64,000 bases of DNA, taken from Phoronis australis (Eukaryota; Animalia; Phoronida). Below, one piece after another: positions 2,369 to 33,561 of this stretch. Within the stretch, counting starts at the first letter, position 1; the number at the start of each line of letters is the position of its first letter. Position numbers and translations under genes: made by a program. Location: contig NMRA01000514.1 in NCBI GenBank assembly GCA_002633005.1, positions 1-64,000 of the forward strand, in the 5' to 3' direction. The notes under the pieces were generated by a model. The model had not been told where the DNA came from. It saw nothing but the letters and a program-made list of their open reading frames with translations, and ran no database searches.

Positions 2369-4404
2369 ATTCATTTCATCTGATCAAATGAATTCGCGAT
2401 AGGATATGACGGTATCGTACGGTATGTAGGATAACCTATATTTATCTCATCCTCGTGGTTTGTTTCGCTGTAAACTAGCTTAGGTATCGTTTCACATTTA
2501 GCGTACACAAATATCATTTAAGTATTAAATCATTTTCTGTAAGCTTTACTGCGTCGTCTTCATTATAATAATGTTTTGATTCTCGGGTCATTGACCCTTT
2601 TGGTCGCCTAGTATTGGTTATTTGTAACATGTGATTTATTTGTCTCGTCGCAACACTGTGCCATCATCTATATCTTCTCGTTAACTCAGTACTTTTCATT
2701 AATTTGTCTATATAACCCTCCAGCACTCAATCCATTTATTACTATTTGTTCTCAATTTTCTCATGTCAGTGTCATGCTGTTGCATTGGCATACTGTGACC
2801 CACCTTTATAGGTCAACATCTATATATCAAAACGCTTATTTCGGACCCTGATGTTGACATTCGACTCCGTCGGACAAAAACAAGTCGAGGGCGGCCGCGA
2901 GGTCACCCGCCCCAGCCCGACGCCTTCGTCCCATTCGCTCCTGTGGTGAGAAAGCGCCAGTTTCTGCGGCCTTAAAACCTCGGCGTGATTTTTTCTTTGT
3001 CTTACCATGGCGTGGCTTCAATCGATCCGATGAAGGTGTTTCTTTCTCGAAGCCAAATTACTATTCAGAGTAGGCCTATTCTACCGCAGTCGGCATTTCA
3101 GTTTCCGCCTCATTACGGCGTTCTCCCGTTCAGTGACTTTAGAAGACGTTGAGGGTTGTGAGTGTTTGATAAATTCCAGTTTCTTTGTCAACTGCCAAGC
3201 ACGGTATTTCGTCTGGTAAGACAACAGGCAAGCCAATTATCTACCATGCTTATTACAGTCTCGTGTGAACGGACTAAATCTCAGAGCGATCGGTACAATC
3301 GGAAACAATAGATTGTCGTAACTTCGGTTGTAGTTGTGCGATTTTGGCGATTCAAAAACTAACATGATTAGTATTTGACGCTGAATTTATAAATTCTATT
3401 GGTATATGTTCAAATATGTTATAATTTATCTTTTATTTTAACAGCACAGACCATTCAGGCCGGCTATATGATCTTCAGTATTGGAGATTAGAGCAAAATC
3501 GAACAAAAGAGAGCCAGTCCTCCAACCATAACTGTATCGTTTTTCATCACAGAATAAAATGAACACATGTATTTTTTTGGTTTAGCTGCGTTTATTTCAT
3601 GATATGAACAGTGCCAGGAACAACTGAAACAAAAGCGAAGTGTGTAATGTCAGAACTCGTCATACGGTGCGCAGTGCAATCTTGAACTGGCTCTGAAAAT
3701 GAAGGGAATATGTAGAAATTAAGTTTAACTCTCGAAAATCTTTCAAATTTGGTAAACACCTCAGAAATGGCCGTATACATTAAGCGTTATACCCCAATTG
3801 CTGTCGGGATCACAATATGTCAAAAGTGGCTATCACAAGTTGCCACATCTATAACATTTATGAAAAATTCAAAAGTTCCAGTAACGATTTCATCTTCGAT
3901 TTTTTGAAAATAAAAATGAAATGTGCGGAGTTAAAATAAAATTGAACAAATGTATTCATCACAAAATCAAATGAACAAATGCCATGTTTTTCATCAGTTA
4001 GGTTTACTACATACTATAAAGAGTTGAAAGAACAGCTCATATCAAATTAAACAAATGTAGAAACTGGTAAAATATTTTAAAATCCCTTGAAGTGCATACT
4101 ATAAAAGGAACCAGTCTTTGAATCTTAATTATATATGAAGACAGGCGTGCTTTGGCAATAGACTTCTAAAATGTGCAGCTAAATCACGTCTGCAGACTGC
4201 AAACGGCAAGAACCATGAGATTCTCGGATGATCAAACGAGACTAGATAAGCAACCCATGTAGCCGTGCCTTAAACTGATTCCTCATGGACACGGATACGT
4301 ACTATCGCTGGAGCAATGGACGTCTAGGAAAAGACTGATTAGAGCATACTACGATACATGCCTTATCTATTTGTCTCTTTCTCGCCAAAGCCACGTTCAT
4401 TTAG

Positions 4405-7400
4405 TTAATCGAGGTAATCGTGTTGGAATCCCCATCCTGCAATAACATAAATTATTCAAAACGACTCTAAACATTGAATTCAACTTAAACATGACATAGT
4501 TATTTAGGATATTAATTTTCAAATGACTGAAACATTTTAACAATTCATTAACCAACGGCGTTTTAGATTTTAAGTCACAAGCCATGATTTCTTTGCAACG
4601 CCTCCAGGAACCAAGCTTTGGCGTTTCTTTTCGTGGAAACTTTATTCAAATGGATGGAATTTATGAAACGGCAGTGTAATATATAGACACCGTCATTGAA
4701 TGGCGTCCACCTCAATCACAGCATTCCAGGTAACAATCCAGTTTTCTGTACATTTTGACAGGAGAAATGTAGAAGGAAAACTGTTCAAAATTTGACAATG
4801 TGCACAGAGGTACAAATTGAAATAATAGACGACATGATGACGTTGTTTGATGATCAATTGACGATTGTGACGGTCAAGATGACAATAATGGTGATGATGT
4901 CGATAATGGTGATGGTGTCGATGATGTCGATAATGGTCGCAGTTGTAGTGATGGGCACGACGGTGATATTGATGACTACGACGCTTTTAATGATTGCGGG
5001 TGGTGATGGTGGAAGTGGTGACTATGATGGTGATGGTGATTGTGATGGAGATGATAAAAGTTCAGTGTTTATGGCAAAGAGTACCAAAGTTTAACTCAGA
5101 AACATCAAGTCACAAGTCTTCCCTCAGTGCATTCAACAATTCAAAGCGATTTTCATGTACTATGCCAACAAATCCTACAGACAACGATCTCTCAAAAATC
5201 GATGATTTCTGCGGTTAAAAATTTGCAAATACTAGTTTCATCAAAATGTATATTATAATTTTACAACGTTCGTTACAGTAACACCATCGGTCCTGGACAA
5301 CAACAATTAATAAAATAACGACAGGAGTCTATCAACCTTGCTACAAAAATGTGTTGAGTCGCTTTGTTAAAGCCAGAGCGAAGCGGCCCTTTTGCCTTAG
5401 ACGACAATTTTTCATCACAGAATAAAGTTTTTGCTATTGCTGTGCGAAGCTTAAATATCTCCGAAAACAGAGCTCTAATCGTAATTTATGTTCTGCTGTG
5501 AGTTAGACTAAATTTTCGTGAAACTGACTGTTTGGGTTACCAAAAAGTGTCATGATGGAAAACGTCATTTGAAAACCAGTTTAGGCTTTTTGCATCATTA
5601 ATTTATCAAAAGCAATAGAACGGGGACACAATATCGTAAATTTCCACCCACCAAGAGATTTCACCTCCTGTGACGTATCTGTATCTGTGTCATCTTCTAG
5701 AACACTCTTTATGAACTCCGCAAGGAGAGGAAACTCAATCTAGAATGATTTTAAAACAAAACACTTAAAATGTAATTGTCAGCCCTTATGGAAACTCAAA
5801 TTTACCTTTACTTTGTGAGCCTGTCAAAGAGTTCATGTCTGGCACTTCCCCAGCTTAGCATCGAACGAGAAATATGATAGCGTGGAATCACGTTAAGGCA
5901 ACATTTTCGAAAATTGTTGATTCTGTTTGCAGTTTTGAGAAGCATTTTACACCGCGTACACTGTAAGCACGTATATTTGCTGGTGTTCATTCTTTTTGAG
6001 ACAGACTGGTTGCAGGTAATGTTCACTATAATTCATCGATGGCAAAAGAACAGCTGAGATCACGCAATGGGAGTTCAAAGCTGCCAGTGCTACTTACTGG
6101 TCTGTCATCTTTTTTCAATGCTGTTTTGCAGTTTTCGCACCCTTCGTGTCCGTCATCACACATTGATTGACAGGCCATGAGACTGCAAAGAACAATAATT
6201 GATCAATGGTCTATAAGACACATCTCTAATAGGGAAAAATCGAGTGTCTTCATGATTATTTTTTTCAATAAATTTTCGGAACAAATGTTTGGGTTCGAGA
6301 AAAATCTCAAAAATGCTGACCCTGTGTCTTAAATTGCATTTTTACGTTTTACAGCGTTTTTGGACTTTTTCATTAAATCAAATCGTAATTTTGGTACCAC
6401 ACCATGTAAAATTGAAACATTCCAAAACCATTCTCAAAGAGTTTTGGAGGACGGTACCTAACTCCTTGTTTAATAATTCCAATGGAAGTCGACCAACCCT
6501 TTAACATACGTGATGATACTAAGATAGCCAAATTTTCATTATCTAGATTTGTCCATAACGTTACTGAATGGAAATTGTTCTGCGTACTCTGCGGGTAGAC
6601 GACATATTGGGCGAATGGTAGTTAGGGTTGTTACATTGGCGACATTCTGTTGACGTTTAAAAGGTCCCTGAAGTACAAAAAACATGCATTTCTAACACAA
6701 TTTAGTTGATGACTAAAGTCTGTAGCAGAAATTACATCTTTGTAATTGTTTCACATTTTTGTACAAAAATTGTTTTTCCAATGTTAGTTTTCATCACTGA
6801 GGCTGTACCGTGGGTGAGGACAATGAGATAACTTAAGCTTATTATGTATATACCTCATTAGACATTGCCTCTCGGCTACAGAACTGCGCTTAATGTGTAC
6901 AAATGTAACTCGTCTGCGATCTCGGCTCATAATACAAGTTTACTACCGTGTAGTATTAACTATTAGTGGAACGATGCAGGGGCCCCGACTGCGTAGCCTT
7001 GCCTTGGTGTGCCCACGTGGGTAAAAACTGATCACATAAAATCTGACACAAAATTAAAAGCTAAACACATAATCAACAAGGGCGTGAAGTAGTGAGAAGC
7101 AGTCTTGCACAGATCTCTTCCAGAATGTGCTTTATAAATTGTTTAAAATTGTTCAACTGGTGATAAATACTGGGCAGAGATTCATCATTAAAGCTAGGGA
7201 ACACTCAGAAACCAAAGAGTTAGTTTTGGAGATTCTGTCATATGGTTATATTACACCTGGAATTTCTAAAGGACTGATTTGGTCAAACTGATTCTGATCC
7301 GTGACTACCTGCTTACACTGGGTCACCCCCTGATGTGTGTTTTGCGGTGGCACATCAATAGCACCAAGACCACCATGTTTTAAGTTTGAAAGGACTGTTT

Positions 7401-10400
7401 TCAACACTTGAATACTAAATAGACCGCGCTATAGAGATTTAAAGCTCTGAAAATGGATGCAAAACAAATGGAAGAATGTCTAAAGTGAACGGAAGAAAAA
7501 TTCATCAAGTCTTTTCAGAAAATAATTATACAAGAAATGCTGGAGATCAACACTGAATTTGCAGAGAAGTTCTCACGGAAGAGATTGTTAAACTAAAACA
7601 TTATTCACGGAGAAACAGCAATAGAACATGTAGATTGAAAGAAGAAGATTGACACAGAGAACAGCTTGGAAGTGGTTACAAGCTTTGTGGAGACATCACT
7701 GAGCATCAGGATTGAGCCATCGCTGATTGATAGAGCCCACCGCATTGTAAGACCCCACCTAGAACCAGAAGACTGTCATCCAAAATGGGAAATGATAAAA
7801 ATGAAAATCAGGGAACACACCAAATTTTTTCAAAACGAAACAGGACAACTAATAATGATAGAGAAGTGGAACTCAATTATTTGGTAAACAATTTTGTTGT
7901 CGAATTAAAAAAGGACTACTCCAATAATGAAGCCATAGAAGGCTTGGACAGAGCCAAAGTAAAATTATAATTATTATTAAACATACAAAAAGTAAAAGGA
8001 GAGGTATGATCAGAAGTGGAGCTCATTGGATAGAAAATGGAGAAGGTAACTTCAAATATTTTGGCAACTTGGAAATTCAATGGAATAAACTTTTTAGACG
8101 GAAAAAAATAAAGAATGGGATATATTCCCTGAATATGTTTATAGAAAGTATGGATGTTGTTTATTTTAAAATCTAATTATTCCTATAAAAATTTGCATAG
8201 AGAAAATCTGAGCCTATTGTACACTGATATGTTATGGTCTTGGGAGCAAATAATAGACTACGTTCATAAGAATATTGGCTTGAAATAACAAAAATATTTT
8301 GATTAATGGAAAACTGTGTTCTACATCAGCTATTACAATACTGGAATTGCTTTTGTTCAAGACTTATTAGATTTCGAAAATAAATTATTATCCTGGGAGG
8401 TTTTAAAGCAATTGGACAAAGTACAAGGCAATGAAAATTTCAGATATTCCGATTAATGAAAGAGCTAGCAGCATGCACGACATTGCACCAGATCAGATTG
8501 ATACGCGATAGACAAAATATGTACTACTTTCCAGAGAGACACCAGGTCCTGAATTAGAACACATTTTATTAAAATTATTTGCTGACCAGCAAATTAAACA
8601 GATTCATAGTATGCCTTTTAGAATGTTGCTCTAACCTAATTTGAAAGTTTTTATGTAATATCTCATTCATCAAAAAGTTTACACAAAATGTTTCTTAAAG
8701 AAAACGAAAATAGTCCAAATCGGCATATGCTCATTTTGTGGACTCGTAGAAACTTTTAATCACTTGTTTTTTGGAATGTGAGTATGTACTTTCTTTTTGG
8801 AATAACTTACAAGCTTGGATTTTAAACGTCGTTGGAAATAACCTGTTACTGGGTGAAAAGTGTGTCCTACTATTTGCATACTTTGGAGGGCATGGCTACG
8901 AAATAAATCACATATTAACGTTATCTCGGTGCTTTATATATACTTGTTTGAAGTTTTCATGTATTCCTGTACTTCAGAGATTTCACCCAATTGTATTTGA
9001 CACCATCAAGACAAGGAAAAGTATGAAATCTACAGAATTACCCTGGACTTCCTGTAAATTTTTAAACTCTTATACGTTCAGTGAAAGTGAGAGTGAATGT
9101 GTTCTTGTTTGTTTTCTTTTCTACTGTATTCCATTGTTAGTTTCAGTTTTTTGCAAATAAACTTATTAAAAATAAAAAACACACACTTCCTTGAGTAAAC
9201 AAAATTATTTACCGGTGTTGAAAAAAATGGCGTTCTGCCATTAACTCTGTTGCTGAAATTGGGGTGCGCGGCTTTCGGCGCCGTCACCTGTTGCCTTATA
9301 CAGGTTATTCACGTAGCGGACATTAAAATCCAAAGCGAGGCTCACTGCGAAGAACAAACCGGAAGTTCACACTGCGTGTGTTAAATGGCTGGTCTTTCGA
9401 GTCGAACCAAAGAAATATAGAAAAATACATCAATGCACCAACCAGTTGTCTTACGAAAGGTATAAGTTTTTTCGGAAAACTACGTTCGAAACATGAAAAG
9501 TAAATATGATCAAATTGCGGCGATTGTCAGTGTTACGGATTAGGTATATGCTGAGTGCGATGTTACACTCTTCTTGTAAATTGTTGATAAAAATGCTTTC
9601 TACACGAACCAGGTCATCAGCTCGTATTTTTGGCGAGGTGAAGATATATTTCACAGGGACGGCTTGTTGCATTTTGCTCTCGTATGCAATTCACATCTTG
9701 TTTAATTACATGATCTAGAATATTAAAATCAAGCATAGTCTAGCTCCTGGTAGTGAATTAGGGACAACCTGAGGACTAACAGTTGATCTGTCATTGATCT
9801 TCAAGAAGGATTGGTGTTGTTAAAATTCTCTTTTTATTAAAATATAAAACCAGGCTGGTATTTGAAGCTAAACACTATTTGAACATCAATTCTGTTTTCT
9901 TGTCTTTATTATTCTTCCAACTATTTCATGAGCTAGGTTTCAAATACTGATCTAGACAAGACGAATTTTAAAACTAAAACACCCAGGCTAGTTCGTTCGT
10001 TCAAAGCATAACCTGAAGAAATAAAGCATCCTGATGTATACCTTAATTTCAGCTTAATTTCAATTAACTGGACAGAGCAAGCATAATATACTTTCAGGGG
10101 CCTCGTTTTAAATGTTTATAATGAAATATTCAGTACAATAAATGACGATAGTTTTCATACAGCTAGCTCAGTGGTTGGCTAGGCCACGTGAAGAAAAAAA
10201 GGTTGTGAGTAAGCACAGGTTGATCCGTCGACTGGAATGAGTACTCACACGACCAATGACGTATATCTCTTTGTGTACAGCCTCAGTGACGTCACGAAAA
10301 ACAGAGCTCGTGGTGGGACTTAAGGTTAGTAATAGTTTTTTTTTGTCAAAGTTAAAGTGAAGTACTGTGCTCTATTTAAGATGATGTGAATGCCAGTAAA

Positions 10401-10943
10401 CAACCTTTATACTTTCAAAATTCATATCAAAATGCTGAAATATGTAGTTCATGCCTCTTTAAAAAAGGAAGACTAAAGTCACTGAGCATACCAGAAAATC
10501 AGTGGATGGTGCCGTGACTTAAAACACACACTAAATCATTTGTTTTTACCACTTCAAGAATAGATTGATCAACATGAGCTTTTTGCTCATTTTTGCTTGA
10601 GTTTAAGTATCGTGTTGCTATCATTTTTAGACAGTTAAATCGGTCCTTCAACTTTGAAAGAAATTTGTGTTGCAGAACCAGAAATGCAAACTTGAACTTA
10701 AAATTTCTTTCAATTTGCTCTGCACGTTTTGGAAGAATTAATGTCTGGAACACCGTTGGCCCGTTAAACAGGCTTTAAGGCTCTTCTTTGAACTTACAGC
10801 AATTTGTAGACTTTGCGCCTTATGATGTTCAACGTCAGCTTTGCTCTTATAGGACGTTTCGTCTTAGACAACGATGCTTCGCTTTCCATGGCGAGAGTGC
10901 AGAAAATGACGACCAAGCAGAAAATGGCGACGATCTTCCCCAT
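4405..10943 (-). CDS. Secreted Cys-containing cationic prepropeptide, paralog A (121 aa, spliced; putative host-defence peptide, possibly decaying)
   Basis: Hand-built exons with GT-AG sites and matching phases: 10798-10943, 6098-6182, 5806-5820, 5652-5739, 4405-4436 (366 nt). Translation MGKIVAIFCLVVIFCTLAMESEA|SLSKTKRPIRAKLTLNIIRRKVYKLLLMACQSMCDDGHEGCENCKTALKK|DDRPAHKVKIEFPLLAEFIKSVLEDDTDTDTSQEVKSLGWGFQHDYLD*. Each exon has a counterpart in paralog B. Confidence 0.72.
4828..5056. repeat. Degenerate (GAT/GGT)n low-complexity tract
   Basis: Trinucleotide-rich tract; equivalent tract at 28390-28592 at the corresponding position in paralog B. Confidence 0.8.
7440..9180 (+). mobile_element. Decayed L1/Tx1-clade LINE with internal deletions, in intron 2 of paralog A
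   Basis: ORF1-like IDRAHRI; ORF2-like WEMIKMKIRE and RSGAHWIENGE..FKYF; zinc-finger region CSFCG..ETFNHLF.EC..V.SFW; A-rich 3' end near 9157-9180; many stops and frameshifts. Confidence 0.75.
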
Positions 10944-11759
10944 TGTTGTTTACCTGATACGACATGATAAACAGGAAATGGGTTATGTAATAATAGATCT
11001 AAAGTAAATAGATATAAAGCAGGCAAAAAAAAAACAATTGGACATGTGGGTTCGGACCCACTGCAGCGTGTTGAAACCCTTCAGGTAGAAACGTTCCACT
11101 ACTTGTAGCTGCAATGTGCCTTTCCATCAGGTCTCTCTGTCCTCTGGTATACAACCCTGACACCTGCGGTCAGTTGCATGAAACAGTAGCGGTAGGGAAT
11201 CCAACTATGTTCCCTTAATTTGAAGTGCAATAGTAGACATTGCTTACTCACTAAAATTCAACGTATATTTTAGTGTTGTTATGAATTAATTAGTTTAAAC
11301 GTGACGTACACTGTTACAATGAATATAGAATAGCAAGAGCAGTCAGTGTTCGAAAATGAAAAGATCCACAGATGCGTTGAAATTTATGTAGTTGAGCCCC
11401 AAGTGGAATTGTTTCATTAGTTCCACCGGGAACTCCCTTGACCCAGTATCTCGCTGTCGTATGAATATAAGCTTACGCAGGGGGATTTTCCGCGCAAAGA
11501 CTTCAATTAATTCCACAAATATGGCTTAATAGTATATTTATATCTACTATTGTAAACCTTGGCGTCATCGAGAAGTTGACTAGCATTGGGTTGAACCTGC
11601 ATCCGAACTCACACTTGACTCGTTTACAGCCTCGACATTTAAACAATCACGCTGCATGATTCGAGGTGATACGAGCGCAAATTTGCAAGCTGGCTCGAAG
11701 ACAGTGACACGCAATGAGGCTATTCGACGCGGTATCGCTGCTGTACTAGTTGTGATTGA

Positions 11760-14490
11760 ATTGCGGATGCGTCACTTTCCCGCGTGCAAATCTTCTACAG
11801 GTGGTTACAAATTCTCGAAAGACCTGAGGTTACTGCAGGCGTGGAGAATTGCGGTCAAAATGGTCGAGCGAATGACAAAAAGTGTGTCGATGCCGAAGCC
11901 TCACGCCCCGTGTGTGTGGTCTATGCATTTCCATTAAGAGACAATTTTATGACGTACTTGGTAAGTTTTTAGCAATTAAGTTTCTATCGACATCGCTCAA
12001 TGATGCTATCCCCACCAGTTACCCCAACTGAATGACCGAGTTTCCTTATTTTATAGCGGACCCCACGCCCGGGAGTACTAGATTAGTTACCGAATTAACA
12101 TGAATGAGCTATTCAGTGAATTTGTAACATTGCATTGGAATAAATATTGACACCTAGAATGAATTTTATTTGTTGAGATCATAAACACATTTTAGGTGTC
12201 ATGAAGCATGCACATTGTTAAATCACTTTTAGCCTGTTTCACATATTTTAATTCAGATCTTAAGTAAGACTTGGGTACAAAGATTATTAGTTTCTACATA
12301 TAAACATGAAGATGAAATGTCAAGTATGCTCTGCCTTACAAAAGTATTTTTGTCTGATGTTTTCTTTTGTAATTTGCTAATATTTCTCTGTTACAGGTGA
12401 GAGAAAACGATTGAAACCAGTCGCCTTACCGTCTATTTTACCTTTCGACAAAGTGAATAGCAGTCTTTCAGCAATAACCTGAGATAATTGAACCTCTCAA
12501 TTCAGAAAGTCAGCCCTTGATATCACTGATTATGGACTCTTTCACATTGTTAATATTGCAATTGCTTTTAACAAATAATGTTGTTCCGTTGTATAAATGT
12601 GGTTGCTCAGTTCGTCATTTTGTTTTTAAATACACTGATTATTGTTTATTTTTTCTAATCTGGTGCGTAGCAAATTCTTATCCAGCTACAGTGTAGCTAC
12701 GCTTGAAAACACACTTTGCTTGCATGTGGAACTTTTGTTACAGACAAGTTAACACGAAACTTAAAACTGTTCAAAGGCCTTCTTAAGAAAGCTCTAAAAA
12801 TAGTTTCAAACAGAAACAAATCAAATGCAATCAAAGGGAATACTTCGTTTTGATCGCTGGACATTTCTATAGGTCAACTGAAAAATGACAATTCGCAAGC
12901 GTAATCGGTGATTACTTCAGCTTTATAAAGAGGCAGCGCAACTGTACTGTACGGGGTTTAAAACTGAAGAAATATTATGGTTGTGATTAATTAGGGACAA
13001 ACTTGCCTGTTGATGAAAAATTTATTCGATCATCAAAGTGTAACATTAACGGGCTTTTTACTGACAATGAAGCAATCGATGCAGTCCCTGAATGTCATTT
13101 CCACATGATGCGTACCAAGTTGAGAAGCTTTTATCATTAGTATAAAGCCTTTCTTAAGGAAAACTTACAGCCTAATTTCAACGGAATTTCGTTACTTTAG
13201 ATGTATTAGGCTAACCAGATTGTCCCAGCGCAGCCTTAGTAAAATAAGAAAACGCGAGTTCAATCACGCAAGTGTAAGCCCGTCAAAAGATAAGTGAAGC
13301 TGCCTTTTTTCGTGCCATGCTGCGTCACCGCGAGATCCCACCACAAACAACAAAAGGTTGTATTGAATAGGCAAGGTACCAAAACTACACGGAACGGACT
13401 CATAAACACGGTCACGGACGCACGACTCACGCACCTGCAAACACCGTTCACTGACTCACAAACATGGGAACGGATTCACAAAACACGACCCGTTCACCCA
13501 AATACACGGGACACCGACTAACATTCACGAAAAATAGACGGTTAACATGTCCTGTGTATTTTTGGTTGAATGGATCATGTTTTGCGAGTCCGTTCCCGTG
13601 TTTGTGAGTCAGTGAACGGTGTGGTGTTTCGAGGTACGTGAGTCGTGTTCATGCGTCCGTGACCGTGTTTATTCGAGTCCGTTAACTTTGTAGTTTAGGT
13701 ACCTTGATAGGGATCTGAATAGAACACCATTGCGTGCGGGTGTTATTCGCAGCTGTTTGAATTAAAGGTGATTCTCGCGATGACGTAGACAAAATTGAGC
13801 CACTGCGCCCAACAGTTCGTTACATTAGGCAATTAATGGCACTAGTGGGTTCAGAGCGATGCTCTTAACATGCTGTAGGCTACTGTAGGAACCAAATTTA
13901 CACGTGTTACCGTTGAAGATAGGCTTTAATGTCACTCAGTGAGAAAGGACAGGTATTCATACCAGATGCCTTTGGTTTTCGTTTCACTGGGATCGAGTTT
14001 CAATGGCCTACAGAAGCGCTTGTAAAAAAGGTCCAGTTGGGGCACGTCGCTTTCCTACATGTGACCTCATGCAGCCTCAGTAAAGTCCACAATTAGATCC
14101 TTGAAGGTAAACACAACATCATATCACTTGACTCGCTTTGGGCCCAAAATCTGATCCTGAACTAGACAACAGCGTTACCAGTTCTTCTTTAGCTTCAGTC
14201 CCTCATGCGTCTTCCAGGAAAGGCAATAAACCATTGTTGTCCACACATGACTCATTGCCTATGAAATGGCGTCATCACCAATGAGGCTGGGTGGTGAAGC
14301 AGTCAGATATAGTTCCTCTTCACACACAAACAATCCACTGGCACACTTTCTTATGGTAACTTAGTACTGCGGCCACTTTTTCATGCAGCACTGCCGGCTG
14401 CTGTGTGAACGCCATGTTCAGGAAAGAGAAAGGATTAACAAAGCTTGTCTGTGTTGAGGCTTGACGTGGAATCAAAGATGTCACTGAACC
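11760..14490. mobile_element. Decayed ISL2EU/Harbinger-type DNA transposon (THAP-transposase relic on +, YqaJ nuclease relic on -)
   Basis: Plus: THAP-like PACK..YKFSKD.RLLQAWRIAV...P.PH..CVWSMHF, intron (gtaagt near 11961, ttacag near 12397), then RKRLKPVALPSILP and a CTGFK motif near 12950. Minus about 14100-14350: GLFV...LYLTASP.SLIGDD and LKLKKN....LVQDQI, a YqaJ-like pattern. Boundaries approximate. Confidence 0.6.
13372..13706. mobile_element. MITE (near-complete inverted repeat, TIR CAAGGTACC, 5-bp TSD ATAGG)
   Basis: Left arm (about 13372-13513) is the imperfect reverse complement of the right arm (about 13548-13706); ATAGG at 13367-13371 and 13707-13711. Confidence 0.85.
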
Positions 14491-15407
14491 TGGAACAAAT
14501 ATTGAAACATGAATAATTAAGTACGTGAGGTTGGGTCAAATATGTTGCCCTTGTTTTTCAAAAATGTGATATGGTTACTGCTTTACAATTTCACACAAAA
14601 TTAAATAATTATTATTTCCAGAAAGCTAGGGTGTATATAATATAAGCGTCTTTAGTTTTCATTCCTAGCCATAACATTGATCTAAACGCATCACTTGTCT
14701 GCAAATTATGCAAGTTATTTGAGACAATTTCAAACCTTTGTTACCATTTTCAAGCTTTTGAATTTTGATACTTTCAGCAATAATAAACAATGATTACAGA
14801 TTCATAGGTCTGTCAAGCACACTTCTGGTCTAAGGCTGAGGGAAATCTTTCTCAGACTTTTTATTTTAATTCTAATAAAACTTGGGTCACATAAAATGAT
14901 GGATAACCTTTCTGTTGTTTAAGAGTAATTAAACATCCTAAGGCACCAGTGTCTGCATATTGGCAGTAAGAATACATGTATGTTCAAATATGACTTCACT
15001 AGTATGTTCACATACATTAAAAATGCAATTTTCACAAAAATGGCAGTCATATGAATTTATAAACGATTTGCAACATTTCAAGGAATAAGACGGTTCAGTT
15101 GTTGAGAAGTCAGAGAATGTAATATATTTTTAGGAGATTACAATGCATAGCAAAACCGTTTCATAAAACGTAAAAGAACTTCAGGAAGTTTAACAATTAC
15201 CTCACCATGTTCTTTCCCCCGTACACTATTACATGTAATTTCCAGACATTCAGTTGCACCAAATTTTACAGCCTCAACCCCGTATGCCAACCTCCGCTAA
15301 GGACCTGCATATGTAAATTAAAAAGACAACTTCCATAGCTTTCTTTAAAAATAGCTGTCCCTTTTCAAAAGGTTTTGTTCTTTGTCTCCGATACAAAAAG
15401 TAGGCTT

Positions 15408-17945
15408 TGATACGCCGTAAAATGTAAGAATTTCGTAAAATGGAACCACTGTTACATTTTATGTAACAACTGTTACATTTTATGTCATTGTTACATTTTA
15501 CGTTGCTAGGCCTCTTTTAAAATGTAAAAATATGTTACATTTTTTGTAATTGTTACAATTTACGTCGAATGCACATGCCAGAAATGTACCATTGTTACGA
15601 AAGCGAAGTCATATTTCATGAGTTTGCAAGGTACTTGTCACACGGAAGAAAACCGTTCACACACCTAACGCCTTCTTTCTCGGATTGTGTGAACGAAATT
15701 CTATCAAATGTGCCAGGTTGACTTTAAAGATGTGTCCTTTGTACTTTCCATGGTTTTTTGAACATGAGTTATTTAACGGTGTAGTAAAAAATGTACAGCG
15801 CGCAGTTTCAACTCCACACGAAAGGAGTTTCCAGGATCAGGTAACAAGTTTTTTATCGTTAAAGCGTTCTTGCATTTTTGTTGACGCTTATAAACTAATT
15901 TTTATCCGACATTGTAGTAAACACATTTCCCTTAGTAAGAACAGCAATGACATCCTATTTGGCTTTTATTTATGGTACTTCTTCGGGAACGAAAGACAAT
16001 TACAAAATTTTTTATGGAGAATTCAACTTCGGAAGCCAATTTGATAGAAAATAAACACCAGTTTTAGTCCACGATAGTTTGCTTTATTTCGGCCAGTGTT
16101 TTATTGCCTTGGAGTCATCGCTAATGCAGTAATTGCTCTGCTTCAAACAAAAGGAGCAAAGCCAAAGTTTCTGTTGCCGACAGGTGATGTCTACCACCTT
16201 AGTTATGAATGAAAATTTCTTAAAGACAATGTGGTGGAAGGAAATAAAAGCACGCATTTATTTGCCGGCAGTTTGACACATTTTGCCAAAGCTACAATAA
16301 AATATTGCCGTTGAAAAGGGCGAGCCATTCAAAAAAGTGTCGTCCTAGTGACGAAAGAAATATCATTGTTCCTGCGATGTCAAACCTCTCTGAAATATTG
16401 GTGGTAACAAGAGATCAAACCGTGGCGTGTAAACGTAAAAATGGGATGCCTGGCACTCTGAAGGCACCTGATTATTTTGCTCCTGTCTAGATCTATAGTT
16501 TAAAGGGGCAATAGTTCAAAAAGCTGACTGTTGGGCTTTCGGACTATAAAAACATTCAATTTCTCTTTCTATTACCTTTTAAGATAAAATATGAATTAAA
16601 ACTGCTATTTGGCCAATGGTCGTTAGTTTGAAGTACATATAAATTAGGATAAAGATTGGACTTTCTACTATTAATTGACGTGAAGTCACGTGTCTCATGA
16701 GTCGCCATTTTTGTGTTGCAGCTCGGAGATAAGGGAATTTGGTATATTAATCCTTTTGATGCATTGCATTTTAATCTTTTTGATGCATTATATTAAAAGC
16801 TCATATTAAACATCGCTGACTTCGACATAGGCGGTTTTTGTTCCATACAATATTGGGGCCCATTCCACATAAAATTGTTGCGTGTCTTGTATGTTCGTTA
16901 CACCCTATTCTAATGAGCCGTTGACCGCAACTGAGTAGTCGTTAGTTCTCGAAGAATGTCTGTGTCCAGATTTCAACGTAACGCAATTTTGAACTTTCTT
17001 TGACCAGGAATGTTTTCAACAAGAGACAGTTTTGCGGTCTGAATTCAGTTCTTCGTGGCAAACTACAGATGGACATAGTTATATCTACAAATAATACAGT
17101 GCTTGCCGATAGTTCAGAAATAATCAATTTTTGAATTTGGTGCTCGTCTAAACAAGTTTTTAAATCTTAATCTCCTCGTTTCCAAAACGTAGGCGTGCTC
17201 TGCATCCACAACTGTCAAGACGTTCCTCACAATATCGTTAAAGCTGAACTTAAGAGCCCCTTTAAAATCCTATTGGGACAGCACTTGCTGTCCACTATGG
17301 AAAGCCTGATGACAACATTGAACAATAAATGAGATGATTTTAAAATCTTTGATGTCCATGATATTTTAGCACTTTGTTAAACTGGTATTGTGTCCTCGTA
17401 AATAAATTACTAATAAAAACGATAATAGGTAGCCAAATTCATGTCGTGTCAGCCCGGAGTGCATTCCTATAGTAGATGTATACGAAAAGTGCCGCTCAAA
17501 AGACTGTTTTTTCACAGAAAAAATACTCTGCAAAATTGTGTCATTTTTGACGAAACTAAAAGGTGTCTTTCCTGAATTTCTGGAACAGACGTGTGCGAAA
17601 ATGTGAGGTTTTACACAATTTAGTCTCTAAGTGGGTAATTTTTGTACGAGCCCACTCTCTAAATGGGTTGGCATTCAAATATTTCGGGCGCCACTCCTCG
17701 TCTAAAAATACTCCAGTACACCCGGCTGTGTCAGATACCACTTGTTCGTGATTTTGGTCATTTTCTTTGCAATATGATGTGGGTTTCGTAAAATGTAACA
17801 ATGGTACATTTCTCGCATATGCGTCCGACGTAAAGTGTAACAACTATGTAAAATGTAACAACTTGTTACATTTTAGGAGAGGCTTAGCAACGTAAAATGT
17901 AACAATGACGTAACATGTAGCAGTTGTTACATTTACGGCGTATCA
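15408..17945. mobile_element. 2.5-kb non-autonomous DNA transposon with long TIRs carrying TGTTACATTTTA subterminal repeats
   Basis: TGATACGCCGTAAAATGTAA ... TTACATTTACGGCGTATCA; imperfect inverted arms of about 170-190 bp; direct repeat AGGCTT at 15402-15407 and 17946-17951. Confidence 0.8.
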
Positions 17946-19501
17946 AGGCTTTGGATAGGAAGTTCTTGCTGGTTAGCTGCCTGCAGTCAACTGCTTAAAT
18001 CCAATTTTCAGGTGAAAACAGACATGATATATTTCCATGTCAACATGTAATAGATTTCCGGACGACATAGGATAAGGAATAAACAAATAGTCTAATGGAT
18101 GTTTGTGATGTACCCTTTGGGCTTGGGCTGTAAGCTTACCTCACTGTTGTATTACTGTCATTCAGCATTAATTGATGCAACTGTCACTGATAAACTGTTA
18201 GAAATCATTCCAAACATTAATGATACTGCTTTGGTGTACAAAAACACCCCGAGTGCTATGTCAAGTATCGTAACACACATCAGTCATCACAACAAACAAT
18301 GATTAACCGATTTGCAACTGCCGCGAAGTCAACATCGGCCAGTACCTAAATTAACAGGTATCAGTTTTTTAAACATAGAATAATCGTTAAAAATAAGCAC
18401 AGACCTTACCTTTGTATAAGGTAACGCTTACTTCTTCTCATAGAAGCACCCTTTTCCCGCAATCTCAGCTTCTGTTGGCACGGATGCAAGTCATTTCATC
18501 ATGTATTTAAAGGGCTCGCGAAATCGAGGCTGCTTAATCCATCACCACTAGTACAGGTGTGCCCTCTTTTAGTGTAAAGATTGTCGAATAGATAAAAAAT
18601 TCAGTCCAATTTCGAGTTCAGAGATTTGACGCGGGTCATGGCAATGAAAAGAGTGGACTCTCTAAAAAGAGATATTGGCTGTAGACGCACTAAAGTTTGA
18701 AGTAAAAAAGACTTGTTGTTCTGATTAGCTCGGTTCTATAAAACGGAGTAATAATATTTAGATTGTTCTCGAATTTCCCGACTTGTATCAACTTTTGACA
18801 AACGTTTACCATCCTCAAGAAAATAACTAAAAGATAGTTGTCATTAAGACAACATTTCCTTTGTTTTCACCCGTAATAAGCACAAAACAGTTTCACCGAA
18901 CAAAAATGATGATTTACAACTCATTAGAAAAAATTCGTTTTTACCAACAAATGTTCTCGGTTTGAACATGGAACTCTAAAGCTGGAATGCCAGCTCCCAC
19001 ACGAGGCCTGTTGCATGTTTTTGTATTCTATTATTGCGATCCCGAGACTAGCTGAGAACGTTTGCACTTAGAATTTCCAGCTGCCAGCTCGACTGTGTTT
19101 TGATCGAGAGTAGTAGTTATCATATCAAGCAAAATTTCATTGCTTCACTTTCATTTTGTTATTGTTGTTCATCAAGAGAGACTCCTGAGGTACAACTCCA
19201 TACAATCAGCGATTTCTCGGCAAAATTAGTCAGCAAACCCAACAATTGTACTGGTCATTCTTTGTAAGCACCGACCTGTGTGCCCATGGTGGATACCGGG
19301 AGTAGTTTGGCCTCTGATTTCTTTTCAGCTCCAGTTGTAGAACCACTTTCAACAACCGGGCACACTACATGCCAGGAGTTTTTCAAGAAGGACTTTTGGG
19401 TGTTAAAATCATGTTACAGTATTTTCGGAAGTAAGTTACATTTGGCCATAAGGCAGGTGCGGTAGCGTAATTGTCGAAATATTACTCATGTTTAGCTATT
19501 A

Positions 19502-19580
19502 GTGTGTTTGAGTGTGTGTGTGTGTGTGCGCGTGCGAGTGTGTGTGCGCGCACGCGAGCGGTTTGTGTGCTCGTGTGTGT
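19502..19580. repeat. (TG)n/(CG)-interrupted microsatellite
   Basis: Direct reading. Confidence 0.8.
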
Positions 19581-21161
19581 AATGTATTCATTTGGTTCTA
19601 TGATAATCTATTTGTGCAATGGTAATTCGATATCTGAGACATACTTGAAGATCTACCCTTATCGGTGGTCTTTACCTATACAGCGAAATAAAATTTTACA
19701 TTGTAAAAATCTATTCCAGTACTACGTGTTGCTGATGGTGTAAAGTGTTTTTGCTAGTTGCACCGCTCTTGGCACACTGTCCCACTTTCTTTATTGTTTT
19801 CTCCCGTTCCCCCACACGATCTAAATTTACCGATTTTTGACACACGGCCAAATTGCTATGTTGTAATACTTGGATATCATTGAAATTTCCCACGCGACAT
19901 GGCCATATTTTCTTGCTCAACTAAACAGAAGGAAATGGTACGATTTATGGGCTTTGCATCACCCTCAATTTCCCATTCAACTATAAAACCAACAAAAACG
20001 CTGTCGGGCATTTTCGTGTGTTACATCTCCGTTCAACAAAAAAAGAAAACGCTGACGGTATGTCTGTCGTGTTGTAGCAAATATTTCACCCATGCGTTTT
20101 GCCTTAGACCCAGATGTCACGCATTTTATCCTGAAGTCCTGCTTTTCAATCAACTTGTTCCGTTTTTTCGTTCTTGAATGTTGACCGTGATTACTATGCA
20201 ACAGTTGTTCAAAATAACGTTGTACAAAATAGATCAGGATCACTAACTTTTACTTTTTGCAAATTCTTACCTGCAACCAATGCTTCACAGCCCACTTCAT
20301 TGCTACGTGACAGAAGATTACCCATTTGTTATCGATCAGAAAACATTTATCTACAAATTTCGGATACATATTTGGAATAGCTTTTCGTATTTTTCGAAAA
20401 TGTCACTGCATTCTGATTTTTTACTGAAGAATGTGATTACATGAAACAGCACCATTTCCAAATAATGATAACACATAAAGATGACTGCAATGATGGACGA
20501 ATTCCTGACTTCATTATCCACAGCAAATGTGAGGTATTCATGTACCAAAAGCTTTGTCTTTAAAGCGTAGAAATTTTTTGACTCTTTAAAATTACTCCGC
20601 TAATGGCTTAACTAGTCGTTTATACAGTGTATAACATCTCTTGTTCACTTCCTTATTACTTTACTACTACACGCCGTTAATTTTGCATTTTGGTCGATAA
20701 CACTCTTGGTTTTTCAATTAAAAAACATTTTAAACCTGTCAGGTATGCTAATTACTTATGATTTGAATTAATCTTTTGCTTCCGGTAGAATCATCGCAAA
20801 CTGACAAAGGGCTTTTTGGTGACGTGGATTTTATGCAATTCGGTTGACAAACGGCAGAGTTCCGAAAAGTTTTAATGACAGCAAATAACATAGCAAGTAC
20901 ATATACTGGAACAAACGAATGTAAACAACTCACACGTATGCGCGGCTCAACCTCAGCGGCCGCGAGATTAGAGTTGTCAGTCCAGGGCTAGAGTTTTGCG
21001 ATTCCAACCAATAAAAGTTTGATAGCGGGACTAGGAATATGCAAAGTGCGCCCTCCTGCCTTCACCCTGTGCCCAATGTTCAACGACTCGGCAGTAAAGA
21101 TACATGTACATGTACACGTCCTGAAAACACGTAAACTTTAAATCGTATTTGCCTAACTTAC

Positions 21162-21280
21162 CTCGGTGTTCGATGAACTTCCTAGTGCGATGGCCACAGT
21201 CAGGATCATTTTTATAAAGTCAACCAGCAGAGCTTGATCGGTATTGAGCCAATTAGCTTCAAGTATTACTCTGCACTTCA
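21162..21280 (-). promoter_or_regulatory. Core promoter (CCAAT + TATA) and short non-coding first exon of paralog A
   Basis: TTTATAAA at 21211-21218, AGCCAAT at 21247-21253, donor GTAAGT starting at 21161 (minus); the block is homologous to 33562-33668. Confidence 0.7.
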
Positions 21281-21885
21281 CATGACTCTTTGGCATGTCG
21301 CCCTAGATGTTTGTGCCATGCTTTCAGTTCTGATATCTTTTTCTTGCTAAAAAGTCTCCGACACATTAACCTCGTCTTAAGTCACACGTTAAATATCTCT
21401 TTTATCAAGCAACTTTTTCCGTATGTTCATACACTCTACTGTCTAAAATAGCTAAACATGCATATACAGAAAACAGAGATGTTGATATATGATTTGCCAC
21501 ATACACGTGAGCAACACCTATGCACTTATTTCGTGACCATGGCAAACTTGAGAATAACAAGTGAAGCTGAACAGCATTGTCTTCTGTATTCACAGTGCTT
21601 CCAATAATCTTTCGTAATCAAAATTTTTAGTTTGTCTACATGTAATAGTTCGTTTGAAAATATCAGGACACCTCTCCGATGGTAAGGGAAGGCTTTGTGC
21701 GACTGGTAACGTGAAACTGTCGTTTTTTCATATCCGTTAAGCGTGAGATTCACCGTGATTGCGTATTTGTATTTTTAGGCTAGCGTAAACCATGCATATA
21801 CATGTACCCTACTATGGTGAACGAAAAATGGGATTGGTGAGTCCCGTGGAGGTCCAGCGTCCGTGGAAAGAGAATTAGTGGCTAA

Positions 21886-21969
21886 AATCCTTAGGATCCG
21901 CCAATCCTTAGGATCCGCCAATCCTTAGGATCCGCCAATCCTTAGGATCCGCCAATCCTTAGGATCCGC
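21886..21969. repeat. 17-bp minisatellite AATCCTTAGGATCCGCC x5
   Basis: Perfect tandem copies. Confidence 0.95.
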
Positions 21970-23129
21970 AGAATTATCGCCAATCAGCCTGAGAATTGGT
22001 GGCATTCGGTGTTGATAATTGAAGTCCGACTACAGGAGGAAACAGAATCAGTTGTTATCTGCGAAACATTAAAAAACGAGGTCGTCTTGAAACGTAAAAT
22101 CGATAATTTTGCAAGGATGAACCGTCACACCACCACTTCGTCCCATTTTCTTTTTCCAGTGATCAGGAGGAGGAATGGCTAATATTTCTAAGTGTATTTC
22201 ATAACTATACATGTATCAGTACAATTTATACTAAATAACTAGATAAATTATACAGTACCCTAACACTAAGCACTAGTTTCTAATGAAGTCAGTCTTTCAA
22301 GCAACATTGACGTCACAGTATCGATTGTTAGGCACGACAACTTTTTGTGCTCAGTCTGGACGAGACAGTTTAAGCAGACTCATTTGACCTTTCGGGAATG
22401 TTATCTGTTCTGAAAGCTTTTTGTCACCCTATCGCGTGTAATGATTAAAGAAACCGCGATTCTGTTCTGTTGTTTTTTAATAAAATGGATTTAATTAACG
22501 AGAATAACAGCTACAGTTCCTGAAACCGGGACTAGTGACGCACCGAGCAAGTTACAAAAACATCAACCTATCCGGGAAAAGACGGGCTCCCTCAGTTTTC
22601 ATTCCTCGGGCTTTACGGGTATAGTTCCGATAACTTAGCGTCGTGGTCGAGGTGTCCGCAGATTTTCAGTCCCAGTGTCTTTAGAACCAGGGACTTGATC
22701 CTATTAACTGAATAAAGGTATTGATGTTATTGCAACACTATTGCACCGAATTTTATATTTAAACCTTTTGTGTAAAATGTTTATGTTGTGATTTCAGATA
22801 CCATGACCATGGTATCAGCCTGGGATTTTATTTTGCTCGAAGAACAAGCCTCATTTCGTTGTCCATTGCCCCTCTTTGAGCACACGATGTTTTCCTGAGC
22901 TTATCGGGGTCCTCATGATAATCGAAAGCATTTAGGTCAAACCTGTTGTCAGTTTTTTCGTCCTTAAGCTTTTCTACGGGTGAAAAAAAGTTGAGTAACA
23001 TTGACACTAGCATCTGTCTTTCAACTCACAAATGGACGATAAAACAGTTATTGTATGGTGACGACGATCTATTATTCTTATATTAGAACCATTAAATTAT
23101 CCTTGAACAACCGAAATGTGTATAGTTCA

Positions 23130-24730: not shown

Positions 24731-26853
24731 TGCGCATTGATGCCCACTCATGGAATTCCGTGTCGACGGTGTCGTTCGTCATTTTTCCACAAGGCCACTT
24801 TTGGAAATAGGTGGCGCTGTGTTAGAGGGCAAAACGCCTCTAGCGTGTGTACTCGAGCATGCTGCCAATGGAATTCGGCATTATCAAAATGAAACAGGTG
24901 CTATTTCCATTGTCTCATTTCCTCGTCGCAGAAAAAAACGAACAAGTGGAATGTTTTAATTATTTATTGATTTTATACAACAATGCGGCAAGAATGGCTC
25001 GAGCAAAGGCGAATTGAAGCAAAGTGACTAATAACCGATTTCGTCATGGCGGCGTGTGGCGCAATCTTGAACTGTCTCTGAAAATGAAGAGAATACGTTA
25101 AGGTTACGTTTAACCCTCGAAAATCTTTCAATTTTGGTTAATATCTGAGAAATTGCCGATCAGATTGAAAGAAACCTACACTTTATGCATTGTAGGCCTA
25201 CCCAAATTAATGTTTGATCACAGTGTGGTATGAGTGGTTATCAAAACTTGAGATTTTTCTAAACTTTATGAAAAATCCAAAGCGATTCCATCAGTGTTTT
25301 GGAGATTTCATCTTGGATTTTTATGTGAAGCAAAATTTGCGCATCTTATTGACAACGTTGTTTTGCACTAACTGTGTCTTTCTTGTTTGCTAAATTTTAA
25401 TAAAAAGACAAAGTCGAGTTACAATAAATGGAACATTACTGCATAGTGAAAATAAAATTGCACAGGCTTTCTATTCTCAGAAAATATATACGTTCACAGG
25501 AATAAATTCTGCAGTTTTATAAATATTTGCAGATACACATATCTCTCGATAAGTCCCCACATGCATGTAACCTTAAGTATATAAATGTGAATTGTAAGAA
25601 ATTTTAGCAAACACAGCCTGACATTTCGGACAGTGGTTGTTTTTCAATGGTGGTTTGAGACATGGTAGTTTGGAATATACAGTAGACAGACATTGGTTCG
25701 TGTCATGATGTCACGATAGATCTGCACGCTTGTGTATGTGATTCACTTTCTTACGTAACACCACTGAAAAACGACCTCTGTCGGGAACGTCCGACTAGCT
25801 GTTTCATTCTCCTTAACTAATCTTGGCTGGACTGCACCAACGTTTAGTACACATAGACTAAATAAAGTCTCCCCTGACATTCTTCGTCTATTATTTTGTA
25901 CGTCGTTGTTAAGTATCACCGCTGCCCGAGGACCTCGAGTCTTTCGGACTAACTCATCTGCTTAGAATCTCTCCATTCCCTACTCCCTCTCTCTACATGT
26001 AGCCCGGAACATACACCAGTATGGACGCGTATTTGGTTAAAATACTCTGGAGACACCTTCGTCACACCTTTATACGTCAGGCTGTGTTGTGCATTTGTCA
26101 GTATAAAAAACTTCGAGAAAGTAAAGTCCTCACAGCCGGGTAACATAAGGCGCCTCTTTTTCGACTATGCGTAATTCGTTACATGTTTTTTCAGTTCTGT
26201 CAGCCGTAGTAATGAGGCATCCACCCTGGTTTTCTACGGGTTCTCAGAAAAGTCACGTGAATATACACGTAATTACACGTAACTACGAATAACAATATAG
26301 GAACATCGATCGATGCAAATGTTAGAGAATCATTGCTGCAGAAAAACGACATAGTTTGTTGAATGATGCGCCATATTTAGAATTGAAAATCAGTTAGCTA
26401 GCCATTCATACCTCCATGATCGTCAGTGCCCGTGTCCGCTTACGACGCGGTCGAAATGACTACCCAACGTGAGTGCATGCGTGAAGTTGACTTTCTCCAC
26501 GGCGACAAGATAAGTAGCATTTTGTTACTTGAGCGTGGCCACTTCGTACGTGCGACATATTTTGTAAACCAAAACCGTATAAATTGTGCACTTGGCACTA
26601 TATTTCGAAATATTGCTGTTTAGTCATTTTGGAAGCCTTCAAAAGACTGGCAATGGGTTTCCTCGAACGGTCAAACGAGAGGAGATCAGCATTTCACGCA
26701 CCCGCATGCCCGTGGAAAACCGATTTGTCATGGACGAAGACACGGGTAAATGGGTTGCTCTCTGGGTGAGCCGACACGGGCATGTACGATCACTGGAGCT
26801 GTGAATGGCTTGGTAAACATTTTCTAGAGCCTACAGATACATGCCTTAATTCC

Positions 26854-31444: not shown

Positions 31445-32504
31445 CGTTATTTACCTGATACAAAAAGAAAAACAGGAAGGGGTTATACGATGATAGATGT
31501 ATGAGAAAGGTGACAAGCCTTCCAGTATTTTTAGAACTAACAGAGTAACCGAATGATCTTAGCGCTGAGCTAAAACTGCCAACGAGGGGGAATTTTGTTT
31601 ACTTTCAAATGTTCCATGACATTGTACTACAAAAGCTAATAAGATACTTGTTAATTCTTTAAAAAGATACAATGAGTGTAACGTTTTTAAATCAATTCTG
31701 AAAACGGGATCAAAAACTGTTATAAAAATAGATCAGTCCCAGGATATAATCTCTGTACACAAAAGTCGACAAAAATTGGACAGTTGCAAGGCACGCTTAA
31801 AGTATACTTCTAAATATGTAGGCATTAGTCACTCAATTGTCCCGCACAAGACCCCCGGGCTGCTTTTGCCTATTATCAAATAACTGTTGAAAATCTAATT
31901 AAATACAAAAATAATTAAACAATATTTATATGAAACACATATAATATAATATAATATAATATAGTATAATACAATGTAATGTAATACAACATAACATAGT
32001 TAAAACAGCTGGACACGTCGGCCCGGTCCCTCAACAGCGATTTGAAACTTTCAGGTAGAAACGTTCCATTAGCTACAATGCATGTTGAAAGACTGTTCCA
32101 ACAGGTGTCACTGTCCTCTGGTCTACAACCCTGACATATGCTATCATGTGTTAAAAATGAGCCGACATTTCAATGTAAATTAATACATGGACTTCGATTG
32201 CCTCCTGCTTATATTCAACAGTAGTAAAAATTCAATATTTATTTTACTCTCCGAATGAATTTACAATTTAACCTATCACGATGCTTGATTCCAGCACAAA
32301 TTGTAAATTTACTCTAACCGTGCGAGGAAATTGGTCAAACTTTGAATCGAGTTTCGAGTACAGAGATTAGGCACGGCCCCTGGTATTAAGAGGATTGAAT
32401 CCCTCATCTGATTAGTACATTGGATGTTGGCGCATTGATACATGTTAATGTAGTATGTTTTTCACGAAAGTGTGGACAGATGTCTTGGACGTCAAAATAA
32501 AGAC

Positions 32505-32694
32505 GACTCGTGTGGTTGAGTAACCTGATTTATAGTTGAACATGACTCGTGTGGCTGGGTAACCTGATTTATAGTTGAACATAACTCATGTGGTTGGGGA
32601 GCCTGATTTATAGTTGAACATAACTCATGTGGTTGGGGAGCCTGATTTATAGTTGAACATAACTCATGTGGTTGGGGAGCCTGATTTATAGTTA
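32505..32694. repeat. 39-bp minisatellite, about 5 copies, in intron 1 of paralog B
   Basis: Unit ACTCATGTGGTTGGGGAGCCTGATTTATAGTTGAACATA with minor variants. Confidence 0.9.
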
Positions 32695-33561
32695 CTGGGA
32701 AGTGAACAAGACGTATGTAAACCTGTTTAATAATTTTGAGTAAATATTTTTGCAAAACCATTTTGCGTGATAACTTTTAAATAATTCAAAACTAACATTC
32801 ATATTCTTACGACTTCAGTTTTAATACAGTCATAAACCTTATTGTAGCATCAACCCAATGATATTTAAGTTTTATTTATTATGAATATTCAAGTTCGAAT
32901 TTAAATTTGAATTTCATGTTGCTGAAGACTATGCACGCAGCGGTCAGGGTTGAATAGTAAAAGAACATAAATAGATTTAGATATCTTAGAAGTTACAAAA
33001 TGTCTTTAAAATTTTGCTATTTTCTCAGTCAAAGAATTAAGAAAAAGTAAAGATCTAGAAAAGGCAGTAATAGTTAAGCTTGTTTACTAATTTCCCGTGG
33101 TTTATCGACTTTCCAGAAATGCTTACCATCCTTAATGAAATGAATTAAACGACCCTTGTCATTTAAACAACATTTTCTTTGTTTTCTCCAATAAAAAACA
33201 GGATCAGCTTTATCAAACCAGATTAAATATAACTACGATGATAAATGGCAACTCAGTATAAAATTGCACTTTTCGCCATCAAATTTTCTTGGTTTGAAAT
33301 AGTAAGGTTTGGTATCGGCCACTTCGACGGCCCTTTTGCCTGCTAGTATACTTCTAAAACGGAGCGGTAAGAACTCTGATGGTACGACTTGGAAAGCGAT
33401 AACTGCTCCCTCCTTCTTTCACTATGTACCTACTCTCTTGAACAGATCAGAAGTGGCAAACGTTTTGTGATATGATGTTACAATAAAACATGACTCGGTA
33501 GCAAAAATATAAGATCTGAAACACTTGCAAACTTATTTACAATATTTTTAGTCTAACTTAC

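Follow-up and report, generated by a model that had tools for sequence, protein, structure and literature searches.

The combination of a conserved leader, a hypervariable mature peptide and a charge-matched propiece is already known from the defence peptides of ascidians, mussels, sea urchins and vertebrates. In particular, the ascidian precursors Ci-MAM, Ci-PAP, the styelins and the clavanins consist of a signal, a cationic part and an anionic C-terminal proregion, with the signal conserved and the mature part variable (PMC7387483). The myticins of mussels have a non-coding first exon, a signal, a Cys-containing mature part and a C-terminal extension, and show many variants, duplication and low-charge members (PMC7356231), while in the centrocins the pre-pro regions are conserved and the chains vary (PMC4805251). 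The charge-balance hypothesis holds that propiece charge tracks mature charge in defensins and cathelicidins (PMC4571063). We describe two genes, A and B, in a window of 64,000 nucleotides (nt) comprising positions 1 to 64,000 of contig NMRA01000514.1 of Phoronis australis (assembly GCA_002633005.1), which share with the ascidian precursors and the myticins the features just listed, the signal being a likely one in both genes; because the pattern is known from those four groups of defence peptides, it is unsurprising to a specialist. An initial annotation, made from the sequence alone, had described B as a second paralog with a conserved leader and Cys frame and a rewritten mature peptide. Our analysis suggests that B probably encodes a charge-masked secreted defence-peptide precursor of a lineage-specific family, with a mature product that has likely shifted from the predicted lytic profile of A to another target or mode of action.

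The two genes also differ from each of the described systems. Cleavage of styelins and clavanins occurs before D or DD, and a KK-DD stands at the expected place in B; Ciona-type linear cationic helical antimicrobial peptides, however, lack cysteines in the mature peptide (PMC7387483), whereas A and B have four, and the N-terminal arm of B is non-amphipathic. Myticins have eight Cys, a CS-alpha-beta fold and four exons (PMC7356231). In A and B, by contrast, there are four Cys in what is predicted to be a helical hairpin, and the exons number six or seven; no sequence similarity of A or B to myticins was found. The mature start of A, with its Gly-Trp and basic amphipathic helix, resembles that of centrocins, sea-urchin EeCentrocin 1 among them (PMC5856950), and of hagfish HFIAP-3 (PMC11762488). 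Centrocins, however, have a 30-residue N-terminal prosequence and heavy and light chains with one disulfide (PMC4805251), whereas in A the Gly-Trp stands directly after the leader and four Cys are clustered. Gene B has lost the resemblance to centrocins and HFIAPs. The HFIAPs are cathelicidins, with a cathelin domain before the mature peptide, whereas in A and B the cationic segment follows directly on the 23-residue leader. The alpha-hairpinins and other four-Cys hairpin toxins, with C1-C4 and C2-C3 disulfides, share with A and B a helix-loop-helix (predicted here) and a C-x3-C in the first helix, but alpha-hairpinins need C-x3-C in both helices (PMC7191063), whereas the two genes have C-x2-C as their second pair. 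Turgencin A likewise has inner four Cys that end in C-x2-C, but six Cys overall (PMC7024374); no homology of A or B to alpha-hairpinins or turgencins was shown. Finally, in a Babylonia areolata protein (XP_076450360.1, hereafter P0005) the signal ends in E-A and is followed by the first ten mature residues of A, GWFRRAWRRV, with 56% over 34 residues; P0005 differs in lacking the C-x3-C...C-x2-C module and in its C-terminal half, and the likeness may be convergent because its E value is only 9.6e-4. A and B fit none of the named families compared, and the family and its arm-plus-hairpin build appear to be undescribed.

Gene B runs on the minus strand from about 21190 to 3580, and gene A lies upstream of it on the same strand, from about 33615 to 25000. 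Six-frame translation recovered both leaders and both four-cysteine modules, with start codons at 10943 in B and 31444 in A. Comparison of the window with itself showed that 3633-22317 and 25017-34993 are homologous, in the same order and on the same strand, at 67-83% identity, the homologous blocks comprising the promoter and first exon, the leader, intron blocks and the region of the 3' untranslated region (UTR). The TATA box of B (21211-21216, minus strand), for example, lies within a block (21153-21305) that is 72% identical to the promoter of A (33553-33692). Because the z-scores against shuffled sequence (14.5 for the promoter and 5' exon, 12.4 for the 3'-UTR exon region and 11.2 for the signal) exceed chance, and because several intron blocks are alignable at 70-83% identity, the pair represents a true tandem duplication, and B is a tandem copy of A. 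No third copy was present in the window, in which only A and B match.

To establish the structure of B we relied on three raw RNA runs (X1, X2 and X3); a contig set (X4), which we guess to be RNA, was also available, and all four carry one species label. Reads were aligned to positions 3300-21600, with 18-19% of each raw run used. The raw reads confirm the splicing of B. Their first mates map to the plus strand, an orientation that points to minus-strand RNA in most stranded libraries. In X1, X2 and X3, respectively, joint 6182/10798 was crossed by 2939, 2204 and 16 reads, joint 5739/6098 by 2611, 2094 and 4, joint 4436/5652 by 2671, 2398 and 4, and joint 3692/4362, a GC-AG joint in the 3' UTR, by 1678, 1643 and 5. 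For the first coding joint this corresponds to 231, 195 and 1.4 reads per million records, so that B is abundant in two of the three RNA runs and its expression differs more than 130-fold between samples. Thus, B is a genuine, transcribed and correctly spliced gene.

The transcript of B is about 550 nt long and has six exons (all on the minus strand) that carry a 116-residue frame. A short non-coding exon 1 (21162-21190, the 5' end being approximate) has a GTAAGT donor and is followed by a 10.2-kb intron; it is linked to exon 2 by a 9-nt loose end of exon 2 reads (2150 in X1 and 1575 in X2) that matches 21164-21172. (Note that the joint of exons 1 and 2 of B is not itself among the 15 of 105 joints listed.) Exon 2 (10798-10953) contains the start codon and encodes the likely signal (10943-10875) and the cationic segment (10874-10798). 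The read joints further delimit exon 3 (6098-6182), with the four-cysteine module C-x3-C-x6-C-x2-C, net -2, followed by KK-DD; exon 4 (5652-5739), the first part of an acidic tail, net -6, which is homologous to A 29818-29725 (z 5.9); and exon 5 (4362-4436), which ends the tail with a stop codon at 4407-4405. The GC-AG intron of the 3' UTR (3693-4361) is followed by the 3'-UTR exon (3580-3692), where an AATAAA occupies 3596-3591 and read ends pile up at 3579-3586, 5-12 nt beyond it. Gene A retains the GC donor of this 3'-UTR intron together with its flanks. The last 81 nt of the intron (B 3693-4361, A 25078-26844) are 83% identical between the genes, more than synonymous sites are, and may thus contain a conserved element of regulation or splicing. 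Beside the introns in the 5' and 3' UTRs there are three coding introns, of phases 2,0,1; the matching phases 2,0,0,1 that had been assigned to both genes are therefore not borne out in B, for which the reads reject a model with four coding introns.

The model of A, by comparison, is predicted from splice signals and from homology to the read-verified exons of B, and specifies 171 residues with coding intron phases 2,0,1,1, all on the minus strand. It starts with a TATA box and a non-coding first exon (33562-33615), predicted by homology to B. Coding exon 1 (31281-31444) contains a likely signal and a Trp/Arg-rich amphipathic helix starting GWFRRAW, and is followed by a predicted Cys exon (30281-30374; C-x3-C-x9-C-x2-C, ending GKRE, net +7). 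The tail would consist of a first exon (29725-29818) predicted from homology to exon 4 of B, a second exon of 78 nt (28256-28333; phase 1-1, net -7) that is absent from B, and a last coding exon (26845-26939; net -10) with a GC donor (26844), like that of the 3'-UTR intron in B; the predicted 3'-UTR exon begins at 25077.

Comparison of the two precursors reveals a conserved leader next to a rewritten mature part. The leaders are identical at 14 of 23 residues, as first annotated, and at 50 of 69 nt; that of B is hydrophobic, 23 residues long and ends in E-A, a putative signal whose likely cleavage boundary is the same as in P0005. The cationic segments, in contrast to the leaders, align no better than shuffled sequence (z 1.2), in agreement with the earlier description of this segment as barely alignable and without Trp in B. 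That of B carries +9, and the mature region of A has five Trp. Only 5 of 2000 shuffles reach the hydrophobic moment of the A helix, which is thus amphipathic. The Cys exon has gone from +7 in A to -2 in B, and its loop is shorter by three codons (x9 to x6), so that the acidic module with a shorter loop is likewise upheld. Since the 9-nt length difference of the exon equals the loop difference, the Cys exon can be anchored at both ends, and in the anchored alignment GKR of A stands opposite DDR of B, while LKK of B stands opposite GRN of A (KK opposite RN). By this alignment the KR site of A and its Gly are lost in B, and KK-DD stands three residues upstream. The initial annotation had read GKR as replaced by LKK; the loss of the amide-donor Gly holds, and the placement of LKK at the position of GKR does not. 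Single-sequence AlphaFold2 models predict a helix-loop-helix for both Cys exons (predicted local distance difference test score 76, predicted template-modelling score 0.34-0.39), with helices at H3-10 and H15-23 in B. (Note that the sequence modelled for B includes two intron-coded residues.)

The acidic tail of B differs from that of A in three respects that had escaped the initial annotation: a deleted exon, an early stop and the balance of charge. In the alignment, the region of the 78-nt exon of A is a single 105-nt gap in B with both flanking blocks kept, leaving a scar (4821-4876, minus strand) where the exon and both of its splice sites are absent. We rejected a degenerate remnant of this exon in B, given that 57 of 200 shuffles score equally well. 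In this comparison of two genes a deletion in B is the simpler reading, though the exon may instead have been gained in A. The stop of B lines up with a sense codon in the last coding exon of A, and the frame behind it remains open for 13 codons; of 1081 rows of differences, the 40 listed include no other letter at this stop codon. The stop lies 43 nt before the last joint, within the last 50-55 nt before a final joint that in mammals form the zone escaping nonsense-mediated decay. The predicted mature charge is +16 for A (residues 24-82) and +6 for B (residues 24-71), a drop of ten charges, and the charge after the mature part is -18 in A and -7 in B, so that the whole pro-forms would carry -2 (A, from its predicted model) and -1 (B); the exon absent from B accounts for -7 by itself. 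These near-neutral predicted pro-forms are as the charge-balance hypothesis would have them.

To compare selection between regions we counted substitutions between A and B by the Nei-Gojobori method, in 22 leader codons and, for the Cys exon, in 19 non-Cys codons. The leader gave non-synonymous divergence (dN) of 0.27, synonymous divergence (dS) of 0.78 and dN/dS of about 0.35, and the non-Cys sites gave a dN of 1.06, a dS of 0.96 and dN/dS of about 1.1; non-synonymous differences were found at 12 of 51 sites in the signal vs 25 of 44 at the non-Cys sites (Fisher p 0.0014). The cationic segment is saturated and unalignable for this purpose. Thus, constraint is seen in the leader and the Cys, and the other sites have diverged about as far as synonymous ones. 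Of the two regional values named as support for diversification, a signal below 1 was found and a mature region above 1 was not demonstrated. The proposal of diversifying selection is accordingly not shown to hold, as relaxed and positive selection fit equally, only two sequences being compared and the cationic segment being unalignable. We also considered the intron blocks (70-83%) as a neutral baseline, against which the mature region would look accelerated; this was rejected, and the acceleration argument dropped, because a dS of 0.8-0.95 indicates that the alignable intron blocks are a conserved subset.

Length differences between A and B in the three upstream coding exons that they share (18, 9 and 6 nt) all preserve the frame. 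In a neutral simulation, with branch lengths of 0.10-0.18 (below what dS suggests), A as stand-in ancestor and assumed indel rates, the frame and the four Cys were kept in 3.7%, 0.9% and 0.07% of 3000 runs per setting. Long neutral decay of B is thus unlikely, and B is functional in the sense of being constrained and strongly expressed. This agrees with the earlier suggestion of a still-functional gene, given abundant, spliced and sample-restricted transcripts, a signal dN/dS of about 0.35, a frame that is kept and a simulated chance of 0.0007-0.037. Neither a uniform dN/dS near 1 nor missing transcription, the outcomes named as pointing to a pseudogene, was observed, the signal being at about 0.35 and spliced reads being present in X1-X3.

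Further members of the family, as had been anticipated, are supported by read-level variants in X1 and X4. Among the 24 of 1079 loose ends listed, 185 reads of X1 match the leader of B at at least 90% and then diverge into another cationic stretch, which by hand translation reads RILRNKRGS. This stretch keeps a K-R at the position of K29-R30 of B, where Pro follows; the variant looks like a furin-type site. Alternative splicing of B as the origin of these reads was rejected, there being no donor at 10876. The X4 contigs contain at least two B-like variants, in which residues at the exon joints are altered and 95 nt of exon 2 show nine differences, and one of their joints was also found in 22 X1 and 17 X2 reads. 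The X4 and X1 variants are either paralogs or alleles. In both X4 variants, as in B, the last coding exon follows on the tail exon with nothing in between, the sequence being shorter by 6 nt in one variant and by 1 nt in the other; because these variants join the same two exons directly, the loss of the tail exon is shared and is no private lesion of B.

We envisage the following route for the two products. The signal would be removed after residue 23, and the acidic tail would mask the cationic part during storage until a protease cuts at or near KK-DD in B and GKR in A, where GKR would also permit amidation. The peptide released from B, of about 48 residues, would consist of a helical hairpin with two disulfides that carries a basic arm at its N-terminal end. 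With +16, five Trp and an amphipathic helix, the product of A would be a classical membrane-disrupting peptide, and the product of B (+6, no Trp, non-amphipathic) may bind to anionic microbial surfaces with weaker or no lytic action, or may modulate immunity. The likely reason for the shorter tail of B is that it had less positive charge to mask.

Several observations weigh against reading B as a defence-peptide precursor. X1-X3 carry no labels, so the abundance of B in two of them speaks for no particular tissue, immune tissue included, and a dN/dS above 1 is not shown for the mature region. The cationic segment of B is not amphipathic, with 953 of 2000 shuffles reaching its moment. The charge balance is drawn from two genes, one of them the predicted A. 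The hairpin models derive from single sequences, with predicted template-modelling scores of 0.34-0.39, and Foldseek returned 0 and 2 weak matches for the two Cys exons, none at E <= 0.001. Moreover, none of four pieces exceeded the Pfam cut-off, and a sub-threshold RING match to the Cys exon of B was rejected. HMMER searches over 1.84 billion representatives gave three matches, two of which (P0003, with what we read as tape-measure-like repeats, and P0004, a repeat protein) were set aside because they match a Trp motif by chance; the third, P0005, is uncharacterised and is the only similar protein, covering only the first 37 residues of A at that E value of 9.6e-4. A profile of P0005 and both first exons retrieved only P0005 itself among 463 candidates, and none of eight candidates was a relative when exon 1 of A was compared with longer proteins. 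The ESM Atlas gave no usable match and sequence searches of the PDB nothing credible; metagenome scans gave 0 of 576 stretches for B and, in a partial scan, 1 of 598 for A; this last match is GC-rich, lacks a corresponding gene and was put down to chance. No full-length relative was thus found in searches with single exons as queries, which have limited sensitivity. A description of the family was not found in full-text literature, the coverage of which leaves out most subscription journals and supplements, and the start motif of A did not occur in the nine papers searched for it.

It is possible, though we consider it unlikely, that B is functional outside immunity, as a co-opted secreted peptide that uses the strong promoter and leader of the family for signalling, in mucus or cement, on the surface of gametes, to deter predators or, through its hairpin, to bind channels. 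Such a role is consistent with the missing Trp of B, with its lost amphipathicity and amide-donor site and with the more than 130-fold difference in expression between samples; moreover, channel blockers of scorpions and cone snails are found among the four-Cys helical hairpins (PMC7191063), and low-charge myticins have been proposed to have non-killing roles (PMC7356231). However, B keeps a +9 arm with a charge-matched acidic tail, which fits the masking of a cationic effector, and a hypervariable pattern with several variants is in keeping with a microbial arms race, but also with toxin and gamete proteins. Finally, that B is a recently relaxed copy becoming a pseudogene, still transcribed because its promoter is intact and with exon loss, an earlier stop, a lost KR site and a non-Cys dN/dS of about 1 as its decay, is improbable: exon loss and nonsense changes do mark decaying myticin copies, but these are without expression (PMC7356231), whereas B yields about 200 joint reads per million, keeps its frame in the shared upstream coding exons and its signal and four Cys at a dS of about 0.8-0.95, and has its exon loss in common with two X4 variants.

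The window contains further features around the pair. A multi-exon gene of the FAM20 kinase family lies upstream of A on the minus strand (51021-60404), with three exons matching Pfam Fam20C at E 1e-16 to 1e-22; no database relative of its first exon was found. Within the 10-kb first intron of B, 138-nt inverted repeats (15461-15598 and 17795-17932; 87% identity, 2.2 kb apart) look like DNA transposon ends, and a similar inverted pair is present at 42276-42504 and 42713-42947 (76%). The same intron contains a repeat (13076-14297) with reads from both strands in X1-X3 and many contigs; because the reads differ from the window, they come from other copies. In the 4.6-kb second intron of B, broken plus-strand frames with an A-rich tail at the end (7600-9180) resemble a retroelement remnant, which helps to account for the greater length of the introns of B compared with those of A. 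Tandem arrays occur upstream of B (21886-21969; a perfect 17-nt unit, 4.9 copies) and in the first intron of A (32506-32693; a 39-nt unit, 4.8 copies), and two head-to-tail copies of about 330 nt, 71% identical, occupy 95-744. The most frequent 8-mer of the window is the palindrome TACATGTA, with 42 counts over both strands.

Beyond the interpretation of B as a charge-masked precursor, we tentatively raise the possibility that A and B belong to a hitherto undescribed family of invertebrate defence peptides of hybrid build, in which a linear basic arm is fused to a C-x3-C-xn-C-x2-C hairpin, the tail is modular by exon, the leader is reused and the product of B is non-lytic and functionally new. 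If so, the tail would consist of exon-sized acidic modules that are retuned by exon deletion and an early stop, such that precursors are kept neutral, and one leader would serve unrelated mature starts. Both predicted peptides, that of A with its classical lytic profile and the rewritten one of B, would be easy to synthesise, and the pair would be a clean natural example of the charge-balance hypothesis, its tail having changed by exon loss and not by substitutions alone.

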